Shown here piece after piece: positions 1,865-55,420 of a stretch of DNA of 64,000 bases (within the stretch, counting starts at the first letter, position 1; the number at the start of each line of letters is the position of its first letter). The stretch spans positions 64,001-128,000 of the IMG/VR virus record IMGVR_UViG_3300036939_000082, one strand, 5' to 3'. Position numbers and translations under genes: made by a program. This DNA is from a virus. A model generated the notes under the pieces. That model did not search any database. It was not told the origin of the DNA and saw only the letters and a list, made by a program, of their open reading frames with translations.

Positions 1865-1904
1865 AAAACCTCGCGATCAAATCGGTTTGATCGCGAGGTT
1901 TTTT
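1865..1904. terminator. Bidirectional terminator with GCGATC/GATCGC stem
   Basis: AAAACCTCGCGATCAAA-TCGG-TTTGATCGCGAGGTTTTTT, near-perfect inverted repeat. Confidence 0.85.
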
Positions 1905-1958
1905 GTTGTCAAAATTCACTTTATCACTTATAAGGGTCGATACTTACTTAAAATCAAA

Positions 1959-2078
1959 AGGCGCGCTGGGAGTCGAACCCGAGGCAACGAACTGCAAACG
2001 GTTTGGGAAATCCACCTACTTGCAACGGTAGTCTGAACTACATAGTAGCTAATCTAGATCCGGTCTAGAATCACGCCT
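1959..2078 (-). ncRNA. tRNA-like structured RNA, non-canonical, 120 nt
   Basis: 7-bp acceptor-like stem AGGCGTG/CGCGCCT, T-loop GGG-TTCGACT-CCC, D-like arm TCTAGA-CCGGA-TCTAGA, extra internal hairpins; no encoded CCA. Confidence 0.55.
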
Positions 2079-2109
2079 TCGCCTGTTACGGCTAAGCTAT
2101 TATATCTTA

Positions 2110-2943
2110 TTACCAATCCGTCGGCAAGCCAGTCGATCGCCCGCCAACGGCAACTGCGATTCGTCCCCACCCGCTGTCACCCCAAATAGCTTCTAAAGAC
2201 GCTTGGCTGTAGACATCGTATTTCCCGCTGTCACCGCCGATCACCGCGTAGTAATCGGCGGTGCCGGCCCTAGAACCGTAGGGGTCGTGAACGTAGAATA
2301 CTCGTTTGGCGCGATCGTACCCAACCAGCAAAATCATGTGACCGCTGATTTTGTAAGTGACTCCCAGCACCACGGGATAGCCGTTTTCAAGAGAGTGAAT
2401 CGCTTCTGGAACGTCTAGGGTGTAACTGAAATAGCTGTCAATCCCTATATCTCGTAGAACTTTTGTCTGGGCTCCGTGGTCGATAGTGTCACCGTATTTG
2501 TTTAAAATTTTACCGTAGTAGTCTTCCGGCTCCTGTAAACCGTCATTCTCAGCTCTTTGGGAAAGAGTTTTTTGACCGAATTTCTCTAACAGGTATTCGG
2601 CAAACATCGCGCAGGCTGTCAGGTTGCACTGGCGCGTTCCGGGTCCGAAATAGCCGCTGTAGTTATCGACTTGGCTAAAATATTTGACATCCAATCGAGT
2701 GGTAGCTTCTGGTAGCTGCCAGTGCGGAGAGTAAATGTAGCCCTTTTTAATTAAAGTGCCGTCGATCGCCTCAATACCGTCAGCAAGCACTATTTGATAA
2801 TGCTGATCTCGAACGGGAGTAAGATCCGAGTAATTGAATAAAGTTTGACCGAGGGCGATCGAAGCTTTGTCTGAAGGTAGCAGGCTCGCTGCATCTTGCA
2901 TTTTAGCTTTTAAGACGGTAGCTTTAAGCGCTTGAATTGTCAT
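2110..2943 (-). CDS. C39-like peptidase (putative cyanophage endolysin) with N-terminal SH3-like domain
   Basis: QCNLTACAM (Cys), SGHMILLVGYD (His), VHDPYG motifs; N-terminal cyanobacterial cell-wall-binding-like domain. Confidence 0.8.
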   Translation of the reverse strand: MTIQALKATVLKAKMQDAASLLPSDKASIALGQTLFNYSDLTPVRDQHYQIVLADGIEAIDGTLIKKGYIYSPHWQLPEATTRLDVKYFSQVDNYSGYFGPGTRQCNLTACAMFAEYLLEKFGQKTLSQRAENDGLQEPEDYYGKILNKYGDTIDHGAQTKVLRDIGIDSYFSYTLDVPEAIHSLENGYPVVLGVTYKISGHMILLVGYDRAKRVFYVHDPYGSRAGTADYYAVIGGDSGKYDVYSQASLEAIWGDSGWGRIAVAVGGRSTGLPTDW

Positions 2944-13250: not shown

Positions 13251-13271
13251 TGGATTTCCCCAAAACTAGAC

Positions 13272-13301
13272 AAAAAAACACCGAGACGGGTTGCCTCGGC
13301 G
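13272..13301 (-). terminator. Hairpin plus U tract before 13250 start
   Basis: GCCGAGGC-AACCC-GTCTCGGT-GTTTTTTT on minus strand. Confidence 0.65.
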
Positions 13302-14320: not shown

Positions 14321-15960
14321 AAATTTATTTTGTAAACGGGAATTACAGTGCAAGGTTCAAAACCTTTGTTGCTCAATACTATACCATCTCCATAGCTACC
14401 GACAACAGAAACAGTTGGCGAAGGATACAAGAAATCTACTCCATAATTCTGCCAAGGAACAATGGTTTCACCGTTGGGCGCAGGCTGCGAAATTATTTGA
14501 CCGGGAAGCAACAGCTCTATAGTATCGAGTTTCAACCTTCGAGACGCATTGTCAGCAGAAATTACTTCAACAGTCCGGATGTCTGCACCCGCAAGGGTTT
14601 GTATAAAAGCCTTTCCAGGCTTGAAGGATAGAGTTGAGTTGATCTGTACTTCTTGCGTTGAAGGAAATAATTTTTCAATTTCCTGCGGGTCGATCGCCAA
14701 AAACGGCATTCTTGCTGCTGCGTAGCCGGGAACAACAAAACCAGATTCGTCAACCGAAGCAGGCGGGACTTCTACGGGTTTACCGATAAACTTTTGTGCG
14801 GAAGATCCAATAATTTCAGCCGGAATAGGAATTCCCTCAAACAATCGTTTGATATCTTTGAGAGCCAAGTGTCCGATTTCAACCCTGCCGTCTTCCATTA
14901 AACCTTCGGTGCAAACCAAGTGCTGAAAGCACCTCAGTCCTTCGCTCGACAAAACCATTGCTGCTTCGGATGCTCGGTACAGATTTGGGGAAGGCGTTTT
15001 TGCTGCCAGCTTTCCGTCTATGTAGACGTTTGTCATTCCAGTTTCGCCAACTACCTGCACGTAAAATTTAAAATTGTTTGGCAATTCTTCACTTGCAACA
15101 GAAGAAGTACCGATTTCTACGCACAACTTTTTATCTTTGATTGCTACTTTAAAATCGCCGCATTCGACAACATTGCCGTCGCCCCTCCAGTATTCGATCG
15201 CGCCCATCACTCCAAAAGTTCTCAAACCTTTTAACGGCGATTGGTGGTAATAAAGAATTGTTGGCTCTACAGGTACAATAGCTGACTGCTGGTACACCGG
15301 AAGGGTAGGAAAATTCCTTCTTTCAACTTGCACGATCGTCACTTCGAGCGTCATTGAATTTTCCATAAAAAATTCAATGTGAACCAAAGTTTCGTCAATT
15401 GGGACAAATTGAATGTCAATTCGTTTGTTTGCGTCGATCGCGTCGTTGAGCATTTCACCCAAGGAAGCTTGAGCTAGTATCGATCCAGACTGAGTTACGC
15501 GAAATACATCACCCACACCGGCGCTGCCGTTGGCAAGCCGCAGAACAGTCCAAGCTGTGTGTGCTTTATTCGGCTCTAGGTGGATCGACCGCCTCAATAT
15601 TTGACGCTTTCGACTTTCTTCGTCTTGACCTTTTCCGGCAATAACGGCGATCGAATCGGCTTCTTGACGGACAGATACCGCGCCGCGGGTAACTTCCCGA
15701 CGAACAAAAACGTTAGAACCTGCAATCCACTCTGAACTTTTTAAATCGTCGGAATATGTTAATAAATTTACAATTTCCGGTGCAATTACAAAATTGCCGC
15801 TGTTGTAAATTGCTGGCTCGTTGCTTGATATCGCTATCAAATCTAAAGATCCATTTATTTCTTTTTCAAGAAACAAAGGAGAAGGTCTGCTGAAGGTTGG
15901 AAGTCTACCTTGATAAAAATCTCCAAACGTACCTTTAATTCCGAAATTAATTTTTCCCAT
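14317..15960 (-). CDS. Putative baseplate/tail structural protein (beta-rich)
   Basis: 547 aa; NLLTYSDDL..SEW motif seen in phage tail carbohydrate-binding-like domains; position in tail operon. Confidence 0.55.
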   Translation of the reverse strand: MGKINFGIKGTFGDFYQGRLPTFSRPSPLFLEKEINGSLDLIAISSNEPAIYNSGNFVIAPEIVNLLTYSDDLKSSEWIAGSNVFVRREVTRGAVSVRQEADSIAVIAGKGQDEESRKRQILRRSIHLEPNKAHTAWTVLRLANGSAGVGDVFRVTQSGSILAQASLGEMLNDAIDANKRIDIQFVPIDETLVHIEFFMENSMTLEVTIVQVERRNFPTLPVYQQSAIVPVEPTILYYHQSPLKGLRTFGVMGAIEYWRGDGNVVECGDFKVAIKDKKLCVEIGTSSVASEELPNNFKFYVQVVGETGMTNVYIDGKLAAKTPSPNLYRASEAAMVLSSEGLRCFQHLVCTEGLMEDGRVEIGHLALKDIKRLFEGIPIPAEIIGSSAQKFIGKPVEVPPASVDESGFVVPGYAAARMPFLAIDPQEIEKLFPSTQEVQINSTLSFKPGKAFIQTLAGADIRTVEVISADNASRRLKLDTIELLLPGQIISQPAPNGETIVPWQNYGVDFLYPSPTVSVVGSYGDGIVLSNKGFEPCTVIPVYKINL

Positions 15961-21439: not shown

Positions 21440-21766
21440 ATGTTTGTATTGAGCAGTCCATCGCTGATTGTAGCAGAAGGTCGGTTAGCGCGATTCTCTG
21501 TAATCAGAAAACAAGATATCTCTCTTCCAGAAAGAGTCCGGGTTACTTCGCAAAACGGAACAGCTAAAGCGGGTATTGACTTTGATCGCCTCGATCGCCT
21601 TTTGTTGTTCATACCCGGTCAGAGGCAGTGCGATATAGAAATTCCAATATTTGAAGATAATAGTTTAAACTTCGATCGTGACTTTACCGTACATTTAAGT
21701 TCAATAAGTGAAATCGGAGAGCCAAATATAATGAATGTAGAAATAGTTGACGTATGCTTTGATTGA
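21440..21766 (+). CDS. Standalone Calx-beta domain protein
   Basis: VAEGRLARFSVIR...VRVTSQNGTAKAGIDF...LLFIPGQRQCDIEIPIFED. Confidence 0.85.
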   Translation: MFVLSSPSLIVAEGRLARFSVIRKQDISLPERVRVTSQNGTAKAGIDFDRLDRLLLFIPGQRQCDIEIPIFEDNSLNFDRDFTVHLSSISEIGEPNIMNVEIVDVCFD

Positions 21767-22103
21767 TGCTTGCTTATTTTGTTTTTCTTGGGTTATAGTA
21801 TTAATATGTGTATACAACAAAGCAATGAGAAGCATAAACGTCAAAATTTCTTGTTTCACAGGATACTGGATAGTTCCAAAATCTAATATTGAAAAGTTCA
21901 AGGAAACTGCCTTGTCAATACCCCGAACTAACGGGATAATCTTCGACGAATTTGCAGAAAGATTAAGACCTTTAGCAGAGGAATATGTGTCGGTTGGCGA
22001 AATAGCCAGACAGTGGAGAGAATGGAATTATAATATTCCAGAATTTGGTTCTAATAATTTCCCTAAAAACGACGCAAGTGTTGTAATAGACATACAGTCG
22101 TAA
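21747..22103 (+). CDS. Hypothetical accessory protein
   Basis: AT-rich ORF ending before terminator 22109-22149; true start may be internal (MRSINV). Confidence 0.55.
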   Translation: MTYALIDACLFCFSWVIVLICVYNKAMRSINVKISCFTGYWIVPKSNIEKFKETALSIPRTNGIIFDEFAERLRPLAEEYVSVGEIARQWREWNYNIPEFGSNNFPKNDASVVIDIQS

Positions 22104-22108
22104 TTGTT

Positions 22109-22149
22109 AAAAAGTCCGCAACCTATTAATTTAGGTTGCGGACTTTTTT
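22109..22149. terminator. Bidirectional terminator
   Basis: AAAAAGTCCGCAACCTA...TAGGTTGCGGACTTTTTT. Confidence 0.85.
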
Positions 22150-22169
22150 GTATTTGTTTTTATCTACGA

Positions 22170-22299
22170 TCAAGTCAAAGTCAAGCAACTTTTCTGAGCT
22201 TTGAGAATCTCGATCGCCAGATCTAAATTTAACGACACCGAATCTAGAGCTGACACCCGATTTTCAAGTTCGGTGATTTGCCTCGACCGAGCAATCGCC
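22170..22299 (-). pseudogene. Diverged relic of the last ~43 codons of the IPT/TIG gene
   Basis: AIARSRQITELENRVSALDSVSLNLDLAIEILKAQKSCLTLT* vs AIAQSRQISELEQRMMAMDSMQLNLDLAIAILKAQGSSLSLL* (22889-23018); same 130-nt length. Confidence 0.85.
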
Positions 22300-22400
22300 T
22301 TTTTGCAGTTAAAATATTTAATACATCGATTAATATCTTGTTTAATTTAATTACTTAAGTTATAATATAATTAAGTACAAATTAATCACAAAACAAACAA

Positions 22401-22775
22401 ATGGGAACTAAAACTCTAAAAATCCATGCAAACAAGGAAGATTTTCCATCTTCTGTTTCAACTGAAGAGGTCTTAAAACTCGTTGAACAAATGTGGGTTA
22501 ATTATGTCAAAAAAATACTCAAAGCTGTTCAAACAACAATTGAACTACCTAGCGAACGTTTGTCAGAAGAAGAATTAGATAAACTTTCTTCTGAAAGTTC
22601 ATTTGAATGTGATGTGTTTAAATGGAAATATTTAACACAAGATGAACCTACCTGTATAACAGGTAGTCTCGAAGTATCTTGTCCCGAGTGCACCCCAGAA
22701 ATCATTGGAAATCATTGGGGTAGCCCTAGCGAATACCCTTGGATTAAATTTTCAGAAAAAGTTTCTGATAAATAA
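22401..22775 (+). CDS. Hypothetical accessory protein
   Basis: 124-aa AT-rich ORF with TATAAT near 22360 and terminator 22834-22874. Confidence 0.75.
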   Translation: MGTKTLKIHANKEDFPSSVSTEEVLKLVEQMWVNYVKKILKAVQTTIELPSERLSEEELDKLSSESSFECDVFKWKYLTQDEPTCITGSLEVSCPECTPEIIGNHWGSPSEYPWIKFSEKVSDK

Positions 22776-22833
22776 CTCAAGTCTTGAGATAACAGCCATT
22801 AAAGCACTAGCAAGTTAATAATGGTTAAATGAC

Positions 22834-22874
22834 AAAAAGCCTGCAATCTAAATCAATAGATTGCAGGCTTTTTT
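22834..22874. terminator. Bidirectional terminator
   Basis: AAAAAGCCTGCAATCTA...TAGATTGCAGGCTTTTTT. Confidence 0.85.
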
Positions 22875-22888
22875 GTGTCAAATTTCGA

Positions 22889-23707
22889 TCAAAGCAAACT
22901 TAAACTGCTTCCTTGAGCCTTGAGAATCGCGATCGCCAGATCGAGATTCAACTGCATCGAATCCATTGCCATCATTCGCTGCTCAAGTTCTGATATTTGC
23001 CTCGACTGAGCGATCGCCATTGAACTCAAGCTACCGACCATTGCCATCAAAACATCTTGAGGTGTAGATTCTGGGGTTTTAAGTTCCCAGCGAATCCAAC
23101 TATTCGTCGCCATATCCCAATATTCAAATCCGTCGCCCACAGTCCTAAAAGTAGGATTCGGGACGGGATGCAAAACTTGGAACGATTCCGAATCCTCGCC
23201 TGCAACAGTTTTAACTTTTAACAGAAGGTTGCCCGGTTCGACAGCGGGAATTTTGACTCGAATTTTGCTCGAATCAATTACAGCAACGTCTGTAGCGGGT
23301 ACATCGCCAAAAAATACGGATGTCGCTGGTGTAAATCCGGAACCTTTAATCGTCGCGATCGCCCCGACAACAGGAGAATCCGCGCAAACAACCTTAATGC
23401 TGGGGGGAGGCTGCGGTTTTATCGGCGGGGGCGGTGGAGAAATTACAGAGTCGCTGTTGATCGCCACCCGTACTGCGTTGGACTTTACCCCGGCGCGATC
23501 GGCGACAACAAAGTAAGTTCCCGGAGGGACGGCTGGGACAACCGCCGAGATTTGAGTTTGGCTGTGGAATGTTGTCTTTAATTTTACAGTTTCCCCTAGC
23601 TGAATAAAAGTTTCCTTTGTAAATCCGCTGCCGTTAATCGCAATCCTTTTGTTTGGCAGTACCAGCCAAGGGGAGATTGACACAATGCGAAGAGGTTTAA
23701 GAATCAT
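22889..23707 (-). CDS. IPT/TIG-domain protein (two domains) with C-terminal coiled coil
   Basis: ISPW...IAINGSGFT...HSQTQISAVVP; ATIKGSGFTPATSVFFGDVPATDVAVIDSSKIRVKIP. Confidence 0.85.
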   Translation of the reverse strand: MILKPLRIVSISPWLVLPNKRIAINGSGFTKETFIQLGETVKLKTTFHSQTQISAVVPAVPPGTYFVVADRAGVKSNAVRVAINSDSVISPPPPPIKPQPPPSIKVVCADSPVVGAIATIKGSGFTPATSVFFGDVPATDVAVIDSSKIRVKIPAVEPGNLLLKVKTVAGEDSESFQVLHPVPNPTFRTVGDGFEYWDMATNSWIRWELKTPESTPQDVLMAMVGSLSSMAIAQSRQISELEQRMMAMDSMQLNLDLAIAILKAQGSSLSLL

Positions 23708-23708
23708 G

Positions 23709-24278
23709 TTAGAAACTGTTCCCGAACGCGCCGTAATCGCCGATCATTTCTACGTCATCGTAAGATAGGGTCATTGACAGCGTACAAAGATCCTCGCCGT
23801 CCATGTCAAAGTCCGGGATTTCGCAAGAAGATGGGAAGACTCCAATTAACTTGCAAACAATAGGTGGATTCTCGTCATACAAGCGGTGATAAATAATTGA
23901 CACTAATTTTTTGTATTTAGGGTCAATCCCCGGAACAGCCCCGTAAGTTTTGGCAGCAACGTCGCCGCCGGTTGCGTTGACTAACTCCCTAGTTCGCGCA
24001 TAGGTAGCCCGCAAAGCAGAACCGCGGTCGATACACATGGAAAACCACCGCATATATTCGTTTCTAGCTTTGTCGTCGGCAAAGTCTAGTGTGATGCCAA
24101 AATCGCCCGGGTTGATCCGACCGATCGGAACTTTAGTTTTATCCGGGCGATCGGCTGTAGCAATTTCAATGTTGATTGCATCCCTAGTAATAATTCGGTT
24201 GCATTCAGGCAATCCTTCGACAACAAATCGCTGCTTGTTTTGAGGGATCGGATTTGGAGATAAAGTTGCTTTACGCAT
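23709..24278 (-). CDS. Tail tube protein (T4 gp19-like)
   Basis: Follows sheath; QRFVVEG, GDFGITLDF...YMRWF, LSMTLSYD. Confidence 0.8.
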   Translation of the reverse strand: MRKATLSPNPIPQNKQRFVVEGLPECNRIITRDAINIEIATADRPDKTKVPIGRINPGDFGITLDFADDKARNEYMRWFSMCIDRGSALRATYARTRELVNATGGDVAAKTYGAVPGIDPKYKKLVSIIYHRLYDENPPIVCKLIGVFPSSCEIPDFDMDGEDLCTLSMTLSYDDVEMIGDYGAFGNSF

Positions 24279-53899: not shown

Positions 53900-55420
53900 T
53901 TATTCTTGGAAATATAATGGCGCTCCGTCCATCGCAGCCCGGGATGCTTTTTGTAGTTCAATTCCTAGGTATAAACAATGGGACGCTAGTATTCCGGGAC
54001 AAGCTTTCAGGATTTGAAAACCCAATTCCTGTGGGTCTTTTCCAGCAAAAAACTGAAGGGGTTCGTCGCCCGGGCTGGGTGAAATGTGTTCGACTTCAAT
54101 TGACTGGTTTTCGTCATTTACTGATATCAAAAAACTCCCAACAGGATCTGCAAACGATCGCGCTTCTTTTTTTGCAAGGCGATCGTACTGTTCGGCTATC
54201 AATTTATCTGCGTAGTCCCAACAGTCATCGTAAATATGAGCGCTTTGACTGATGGTGATTAGTGGTCCCATTTTTAAGTCGTAGCACGATCGCCCAGCAA
54301 TTTCATCTCGAATGTGCTGCTGCAAAGCCCGCAGTCCCATAGCATTAGCGGGCCACCCACTAAACATATCGTTGCTGCGGAAAATCGCTGTCATCGACAT
54401 TTCCTCATTGACGACTCGCACCCAAATTTGATTCAAGCAGGGACTGCCACCTAAATCGTGATCGGTCACATCCCACAGCGACATGACTGCACTAGCGGCG
54501 TCAATCTCTTCTATTAACTTTTTAATGACTTGTTCGATTTGGTCGCGTCCGCCAAACCAAGAACGGAGGCGCTGCCCGTAAGTGTATTTAACACCTTCGA
54601 CATAGGGCGCATCTTCTAAAATTTGCGATTTATATTTTTCGAGAAAAGCGCGATCGCACGACAGGTAGTTTGGTTCAGGAAAATAGAATTCTTCGGGTTC
54701 GTCAGTAACGATTGCCATCAAGTCTATTAGCTCTTGCCAGTGACCGCCATAACCTGTCGGTCGAACGGTTCCCGTGGTTTTAATGCGGTGGATGATTTTT
54801 ACCCAAGTTTCCGCGATCGTCTTGCCTTCAATCCGATGCCCGTACCGATCGCCCGGAAGAGCTTTTGGTACTTCTTGTTCTGGAACCGGATAACTCTTGG
54901 GTGCGCCCCAAGGTACAGTGTTTTTTGGCGCACTCCACGCCTCGTTAATGCAATCTTTAATTTTGCTGACAACAACCCACGATAGAGAATCTCGGAGCAG
55001 GTTTAAATCGGATTCAGGAATTTCAGCATCTATGTAACCCTTGCCTTGGAAACATAAACTGTTGCTATCTTTATTTTCTTTCCAGTCACAATTAATCACC
55101 CACGCTTCTTGTCCTAGATCGGTAACTCCGCGATCGCATCCATAGTGCAAGAACCACAGCAAAACTTCGATCGCCCCACTATTTCGATCTGCCTCGGTCG
55201 CGTTCAACAATACCAAATGCCTGATTTGCGGATTTGCCAACAAGTTTCTTACCAAGAAGCTAATACCGCGAGTGGGGGAATACAGTTGCCCGATCGCCCC
55301 GTAGTCTTGTAGACTTAATTTTTCTTTAATGACCTTGGCTGGCGTCCACCCGGTAATTACCGCAACATTTCCACTACCGCAACTGATTTGGTTTTGTTTG
55401 GCGATCGGATTGTATTTCAT
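53900..55420 (-). CDS. Thymidylate-synthase-like fusion: MtrA-like N-domain + TS + DUF4346-like C-domain
   Basis: GQLYS..RGISFLVRNLLANPQIR; YTYGQRL, SPCL, FRSNDMFSGWPAN, SAHIY; DPVGSFLI...HCLYLGIELQKA. Confidence 0.82.
   Translation of the reverse strand: MKYNPIAKQNQISCGSGNVAVITGWTPAKVIKEKLSLQDYGAIGQLYSPTRGISFLVRNLLANPQIRHLVLLNATEADRNSGAIEVLLWFLHYGCDRGVTDLGQEAWVINCDWKENKDSNSLCFQGKGYIDAEIPESDLNLLRDSLSWVVVSKIKDCINEAWSAPKNTVPWGAPKSYPVPEQEVPKALPGDRYGHRIEGKTIAETWVKIIHRIKTTGTVRPTGYGGHWQELIDLMAIVTDEPEEFYFPEPNYLSCDRAFLEKYKSQILEDAPYVEGVKYTYGQRLRSWFGGRDQIEQVIKKLIEEIDAASAVMSLWDVTDHDLGGSPCLNQIWVRVVNEEMSMTAIFRSNDMFSGWPANAMGLRALQQHIRDEIAGRSCYDLKMGPLITISQSAHIYDDCWDYADKLIAEQYDRLAKKEARSFADPVGSFLISVNDENQSIEVEHISPSPGDEPLQFFAGKDPQELGFQILKACPGILASHCLYLGIELQKASRAAMDGAPLYFQE

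Follow-up and report, generated by a model that had tools for sequence, protein, structure and literature searches.

A stretch of 120 nt behind the lysin-like gene of a cyanobacterial phage can be drawn as a tRNA with additional arms, which raises the question whether it is a gene for a small RNA and, if so, of which kind. The phage comes from a soil-crust sample, is contractile-tailed and has a genome of ~189 kb. The window analysed here comprises 64,000 nt, bases 64,001-128,000 of the IMG/VR record (188,942 bp, labelled G000, completeness estimate 98%), and the element, a probable small RNA gene, is located on its minus strand at 2078-1959. We tentatively propose, with a rough probability of 0.4, that it is a tRNA-derived, non-decoding small RNA gene, restricted to its phage lineage, whose transcript would be matured through the acceptor/T-arm end. 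One related record, IMGVR_UViG_3300035684_000001 (G001, 188,553 bp), is syntenic on both flanks of the element. The features of the locus are:

2110-2943, minus strand: upstream gene for a 277-aa Peptidase_C39_2 protein, lysin-like (PF13529, E 1.2e-17)
2099-2127, minus strand: sigma-70-type promoter-like site TTGCCG-17 nt-TATAAT, 10/12 matches
2072-2078, minus strand: 5' strand AGGCGTG of the acceptor-like closing stem, only in G000, without counterpart in G001
2053-2069, minus strand: hairpin TCTAGA-CCGGA-TCTAGA at the D position, a perfect 6-bp stem with a pentaloop containing GG
2036-2050, minus strand: triloop hairpin AGCTAC-TAT-GTAGTT, alternatively drawn with a 4-bp stem and the 7-nt loop ACUAUGU
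1992-2025, minus strand: hairpin H, a long bulged arm whose 7-bp outer stem is separated by an internal loop from a bulged inner stem of 5 bp
1983-1991, minus strand: single-stranded 9-nt linker UUCGUUGCC joining hairpin H to the T-arm-like hairpin, invariant between G000 and G001
1966-1982, minus strand: T-arm-like hairpin UCGGG-UUCGACU-CCCAG, invariant between G000 and G001
1955-1965, minus strand: 3' strand CGCGCCU of the acceptor-like stem with the U-rich trailer UUUU(GAUUUU), no encoded CCA
1867-1900, both strands: bidirectional intrinsic terminator, found as a perfect 15-bp stem between an A-tract and a T-tract

As the preliminary description of this DNA had it, the element lies downstream of a C39 lysin: its 5' end is 31 nt past the TAA TAA stop of the Peptidase_C39_2 ORF. 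This peptidase gene is the final gene of a portal-capsid late block, with the portal and capsid genes upstream on the same strand, and the homologue of its product in phage S-SZBM1 is annotated as an endolysin. Three plus-strand ORFs converge from the far side of the terminator, which would end both the minus-strand late/RNA transcript and the converging plus-strand genes. Between the converging blocks (window 1867-1900 versus L002 3937-3969), the position, the A-tract and the T-tract of the terminator are kept in both phages; the stem sequence is entirely different.

The individual helices named in the preliminary description (T-loop, D-like hairpin, triloop hairpin and longer arm) are all present on the minus strand, and so is the acceptor-like pairing, in which AGGCGTG (2078-2072) and CGCGCCT (1965-1959) form 7 bp including one G-U, or 9 bp when extended by GA/UU. 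The sequence GGGTTCGACTCCC at 1980-1968 (minus strand) holds a perfect 7-nt T-loop consensus, UUCGACU, closed by G53-C61; the 5-bp T-stem includes one C-A mismatch (C50-A64) and one U-G pair. The conserved loop region of hairpin H reads AGGUGGAUU(U/A)CCCAAACC. The spacing is of the tRNA type as well, with the T-stem directly adjoining the 7-nt 3' strand and 2 nt separating the 5' strand from the next helix. RNAfold reproduced a five-way junction of the listed helices with a minimum free energy (MFE) of -35.1 kcal/mol. Alternatively, the T-arm-like region can be drawn as an 8-bp hairpin, UGCCU(C)GGG / CCCAG(Y)GCG, followed by CCUUUU. The sequence also bears out that no CCA is encoded and that the room is insufficient for a tag ORF.

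Taken singly, the T-loop motif, the closing stem and the fold energy are each within chance. The motif GGTTCRANTCC occurs once in the window against an expectation of 0.16, and a match was found in 16 of 100 shuffles; the duplex energy of the closing stem was equalled in 21% of shuffled upstream sequences; and the MFE z-score of the element is -0.49. What raises the locus above chance is its context, that is, the promoter-like site, the conservation of the 3' 72 nt in G001 and a CRISPR spacer matching the 5' half, each of which is taken up below.

We considered as a tRNA any locus scoring at or above 29 bits with RF00005 or called by ARAGORN at default settings. By this measure the element is not a canonical tRNA: ARAGORN at default reported 0 tRNAs or tmRNAs, both for the window and for the complete 188,942-bp record, and RF00005 run on the whole record did not report the element. 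Rfam gave no match at gathering thresholds; at E<=10 on the element alone, neither tRNA (RF00005) nor tmRNA (RF00023), YrlA, C4 or any other model matched. The T-arm conforms to the tRNA pattern (7-nt loop T54-Psi55-C56-R57-A58-N-N, G53-C61) apart from the C-A mismatch in its stem, and an anticodon arm (5-bp stem, 7-nt loop, U33, purine 37) was sought in the element and not found. A tRNA with an intron was rejected as well. A 'tRNA-Ser(ACT)' was called by ARAGORN at the 80% threshold only, with a 50-nt intron swallowing the best-conserved hairpin of the element, and artificial internal deletions of the element led to any tRNA call in just 2 of 2115 cases.

The promoter-like site has its -35 box within the end of the C39 ORF and its -10 box directly past the stop codons. 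It ends 20 nt before the 5' end of the element, and the start predicted near 2092 would give a leader of ~14 nt. No other site of this kind is present at 1700-2300. On both strands of the 189-kb genome there are 8 sites of equal quality, with ~6 expected by chance, so this promoter type is not enriched in G000; as there are only these 8, the chance of one falling within the appropriate ~40 nt upstream of the element is on the order of 1e-3. The predicted fold depends on where transcription starts. In transcripts from the predicted start, with or without the terminator, the pairing probability of the closing stem is 0.97, whereas it drops to 0.02 in the read-through mRNA, whose predicted fold lacks the acceptor and T-arm pairs. 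The hairpin at the D position has a pair probability of 0.9 in all contexts, and the triloop hairpin one of 0.6 (0.26 in the mRNA context).

At the same place in G001 only a degraded version of the promoter-like site is found (CTGCCG-17-TATGTT). What directly follows the C39 stop in this phage is only the 3' 72 nt, from hairpin H through the linker and the T-arm-like hairpin to the 3' strand and UUUU. The 74 nt that carry the 5' acceptor strand and the two 5' hairpins are missing at the locus and were not found in the rest of the G001 record either. Since G001 lacks a promoter of like quality, the 5' acceptor strand and the two 5' hairpins, the 120-nt cloverleaf is not conserved. The shared block, in contrast, is better preserved than neutral sites. 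Between the two phages, the adjacent C39 gene has 91% protein and 88% DNA identity and differs at 30% of its four-fold degenerate sites, versus 12 of 72 positions in the block, and 7 of these 12 differences fall in the outer stem of hairpin H. Here G-C, C-G and A-U are replaced by A-U, U-A and G-C, and a G-U by a G-C; with three pairs changed on both sides and one pair on one side, 100% of cells are still paired, compared with 31-66% in slid controls. From the last pairs of hairpin H to the U-run, 35 of 36 nt are identical, a value matched only by the best 5% of 36-nt windows in the neighbouring coding gene. The 3' acceptor strand carries one change in G001, a C-to-U at its first base, and an alternative pairing partner for this strand was sought in G001 and not found. 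The G-U pairs in the two blocks favour an RNA read from the minus strand.

Judged from the two genomes compared, the 3' module (hairpin H, linker, T-arm and 3' strand) thus appears to be under purifying selection; the three adjacent compensatory pairs could also have come from a single template-switch mutation, not selection. Recent exchange does not explain the conservation of the block, because identity is only 83% over the final 54 nt of the C39 gene, and the interval from the block to the terminator is unalignable. Of the conserved structure that the preliminary description looked for in homologues, one part is there, namely the 3' block with its pairing kept through the changes in the H stem, and the other is missing, namely the 5' half and with it the full cloverleaf. 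A small ORF was rejected as well: the frame open through the block has no ATG, GTG or TTG in G000, and the 43-aa ORF of G001 had no homologue among 5.8 billion proteins.

That the 3' module alone is common to both phages also fits the main alternative explanation, which we regard as possible and on the whole somewhat doubtful, namely that only this module is functional, serving in the 3' UTR of the peptidase mRNA. It might act as a weak first terminator, as a processing or stability structure, or as a 3'-UTR-derived regulatory sRNA with the linker or the loop as seed. The likeness to a T-arm would then be coincidental, G000 would have acquired a 74-nt insertion with two hairpins behind a promoter-like site, and the 7-nt complementarity of this insertion to the tail would be due to chance. 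When the 3' block is folded alone, the MFE structure in both phages is indeed the extended, interrupted 8-bp hairpin followed by CCUUUU, and the sole substitution in this region falls in its 1x1 internal loop. The chance levels given above for the T-loop consensus (0.16 expected per window) and for the closing stem (equalled by 21% of shuffles) agree with this explanation, as does the fact that no tRNA model scores the element. As a terminator, however, the hairpin is weak (about -7 kcal/mol, the U-run being set off from the stem by 2 nt), is not flagged by a consensus terminator scan and is followed 60-90 nt downstream by a strong one. True terminators at this locus moreover diverge freely, the stem of the downstream one being unrelated in G001, whereas the hairpin of the 3' block is invariant, loop included. 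The placement of the promoter, the 7-9-bp closure and the tRNA-like spacing would all need coincidence.

The 5' half missing from G001 is not a peculiarity of this one assembly. In a BLAST search of 800 cyanobacterial genomes, a 35-nt CRISPR spacer of genome G347 matched window positions 2034-2068 at 34 of 35 nt. The protospacer corresponds to the two 5' hairpins; the triloop hairpin is identical in the spacer, and the single mismatch (G to A) falls in the pentaloop of the hairpin at the D position. The spacer belongs to the following array:

G347 contig C21, about 21,690-24,200 (L160 9691-12201): CRISPR array in a 7-Mb cyanobacterial genome

Two neighbouring spacers match G000 at 29/31 (13257-13287) and 29/35 (15363-15397), all three being consecutive in this array of 35 repeats (repeat GCCGGAAAACACCTAAAACCCTATCAGGGATTGAAAC); the 5' flanks of the protospacers are GTC, GCT and GTT. 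The 5' half therefore exists in phages met by the G347 cyanobacterium. The conservation of this half in the spacer source, 34/35 compared with 29/31 and 29/35 for the neighbours, speaks against the explanation that confines function to the 3' module. The array orientation was dropped as an argument for transcription of the element, since no consistent strand or antisense bias was seen among the three spacers and no cas genes were found within about 9 kb on either side of the array. Judged by sequence, the spacer match appears to point to a candidate host lineage, a concrete one in which the element could be tested; it carries no information on function.

Other tRNA-type genes of the two phages bear on the origin of the element. 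G001 has a tRNA-Met(CAT) gene at 136,376-136,449 (L146 1501-1574; 65 bits) whose promoter is TTGACA-17-TATTAT and which does not encode CCA either, so that the missing CCA of our element is not informative. A tRNA-like gene of G001 at 55,342-55,414 (L147; 44.8 bits) has an abnormal 6-nt anticodon loop, and its homologue in G000, at record position 173,287-173,357 (L148 1501-1571) and hence outside the window, scores 20.8 bits; no tRNA gene above threshold was found in G000. These other promoter-driven tRNA or tRNA-like genes of the lineage share an A1-U72 start and the absence of CCA. At the second tRNA-like locus, the 3' half and ~80 nt downstream are nearly identical between the phages, whereas the 5' half and the promoter region have diverged, which places a homology breakpoint inside the gene and repeats the pattern seen in our element. 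It would seem that genes of the tRNA type undergo remodelling in this lineage and that the breakpoints fall mid-gene.

Such a breakpoint could also mean that the element is a decaying relic of a tRNA gene or a recombination scar of no present function, left by a lineage that shuffles modules by sloppy recombination with breakpoints within tRNA-like genes; its conserved 3' part would then reflect shared ancestry or recent exchange. The confinement of the element to two genomes would be in line with this. We nevertheless consider a relic unlikely, as the flanks are without sign of recent exchange (see the C39 end and the block-terminator interval above), the block is conserved like the best 5% of the coding gene while neutral sites differ by 30%, and every substitution in a stem preserves pairing.

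The preliminary description had further suggested a mimic of tRNA or tmRNA, for instance a decoy for SmpB. The 5' end of the element resembles that of E. coli tmRNA. A tmRNA/SmpB mimic was nevertheless rejected: position 3:70 is G-C and not G3:U70, no tag reading frame starts within the element, neither ARAGORN nor RF00023 matched, and the tmRNA of G347, which starts with GGGGCTGTAATGGTTTCGAC and ends with ...GGCAGTTCGATTCTGCCCAGTTCCA, differs from the element at both ends and in the T-arm. The same fate met the related idea of an attP-type copy of a host tRNA or tmRNA 3' end serving integration, for which the provirus label of IMG/VR could be adduced. The 189-kb record yielded no tyrosine or serine recombinase (PF00589, PF00239). 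Synteny with G001 extends over both flanks, so the element lies inside the phage genome rather than at an integration junction or prophage end. T-arm plus 3' strand occur exactly in 0 of 185,579 species genomes, and the element was found in none of five candidate host genomes within 3 mismatches. Both versions are largely refuted and, in our view, very improbable. The record itself is labelled a provirus by IMG/VR; yet no tyrosine or serine recombinase was found in it, G001, almost equal in length, is syntenic around the element, and the appearance of the record is that of a free phage genome, not of an integrated one.

Further copies were searched for widely. Exact and degenerate pattern scans of IMG/VR gave only G001 or a chance match in coding DNA; the scan of the 185,579 species genomes for the exact T-arm and 3' strand gave zero matches, and that of JGI metagenomes nine, all of them chance matches in high-GC coding DNA. 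BLAST against INPHARED phages and PLSDB plasmids returned nothing, and among the 800 cyanobacterial genomes it yielded, besides the CRISPR spacer, two chance matches in coding DNA and no further copy. A covariance model of the 3' block (R1) matched only G000 and G001. At 133 loci around C39 homologues, viral and genomic, the element was present in none. Chromosomes of Pseudanabaena, Leptolyngbyaceae, Okeania and Microcoleus commonly encode C39_2 peptidases with 40-45% identity to the phage protein (loci L065-L144), and the RNA element was downstream of none of these chromosomal genes. Closer C39 proteins exist, three with 83-86% identity (P0002-P0004), whose contigs probably carry additional copies of the element, and one with 56% (P0005).

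In our proposal of a tRNA-derived, non-decoding RNA, a putative sigma-70-type promoter would drive a transcript into the element in G000. The predicted fold of the RNA is a five-way junction, in which an acceptor-like stem of 7-9 bp abuts a T-arm with a perfect T-loop. The stacked acceptor/T-arm minihelix may be the part recognised by RNase P, RNase Z and the CCA-adding enzyme, so that the transcript would be trimmed to a discrete ~120-nt RNA with tRNA-type ends; addition of CCA would be post-transcriptional in cyanobacteria. Having no anticodon arm, the RNA would be unable to decode, and its role might be that of a stable tRNA-shaped RNA or of a definer of the 3' end of the lysin mRNA. In G001 the 3' module alone, as 3' UTR of the peptidase gene, may be what a recent loss of the 5' part has left or else the smallest unit that functions. 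A bolder version seems quite unlikely to us: that the element stands for an undescribed class of five-way-junction phage RNAs keeping only the acceptor/T-arm minihelix of a tRNA, processed and CCA-tailed by the tRNA machinery of the host and titrating a host tRNA-binding factor late in infection, e.g. a tRNA-directed defence nuclease or a modifying toxin.

If made and trimmed like a tRNA, the RNA would add a cyanophage case to the tRNA-shaped RNAs that do not decode and offer a small tractable model of how tRNA genes of large phages are remodelled into other RNAs. At present it is a two-genome candidate, a modest lineage-specific curiosity with value mainly as a lead. The designation of the preliminary description that has held up best is its fallback, an unclassified phage RNA motif, given the conserved structured 3' module, the T-arm-like hairpin, the well-placed promoter-like site and the absence of an Rfam match.

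Compared with known systems, the element resembles the tRNA-like structured RNA candidates mined from IMG/VR (PMC10690425) in being phage-borne, predicted from sequence and unvalidated; those candidates overlapped ARAGORN tRNA calls, whereas the element does not, and it occurs in two records only. YrlA and Y RNA-like RNAs are likewise non-decoding, are ~100-120 nt long and contain a tRNA-like module of T-arm, D-arm and acceptor-like stem (Chen et al. 2014, PMC4201824); phages have such RNAs too, and some of the RNAs undergo RNase P cleavage and CCA addition (PMC4201824). The genes for YrlA have a Ro60 (TROVE) gene on their own strand no more than 4 kb away and carry a 5' GNCGAA motif (PMC4201824). 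An assignment to YrlA was rejected, as the 189-kb record has no TROVE gene (PF05731), the GNCGAA motif was not seen and no Rfam model matched. With the tRNA-like domain of tmRNA, the element shares an acceptor stem and a T-arm, with other helices replacing the anticodon arm; it differs in having a true stem where tmRNA has an unpaired D-loop analogue, and in lacking pseudoknots and a tag frame. Small non-decoding phage RNAs with tRNA-like acceptor/T features for maturation include C4 of P1 and P7 and CI of P4, regulatory RNAs processed by RNase P, as well as the stable 'species 1/2' RNAs of T4. The element shows no sequence or model similarity to these RNAs; the C4 family, which is represented in Rfam, gave no match. 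Unlike a canonical tRNA, finally, the element is 120 nt long with five helices, carries the C50-A64 mismatch, has no anticodon arm and shows a 6-bp hairpin with a 5-nt loop at the D position. It shares with canonical tRNA genes the T-loop consensus, G53-C61, the T-stem abutting a 7-nt 3' strand paired to the 5' end, the 2-nt connector and a putative promoter of its own with a short leader, and, as in the tRNA-Met gene of G001, a 3' end without CCA that runs into a U-rich trailer.
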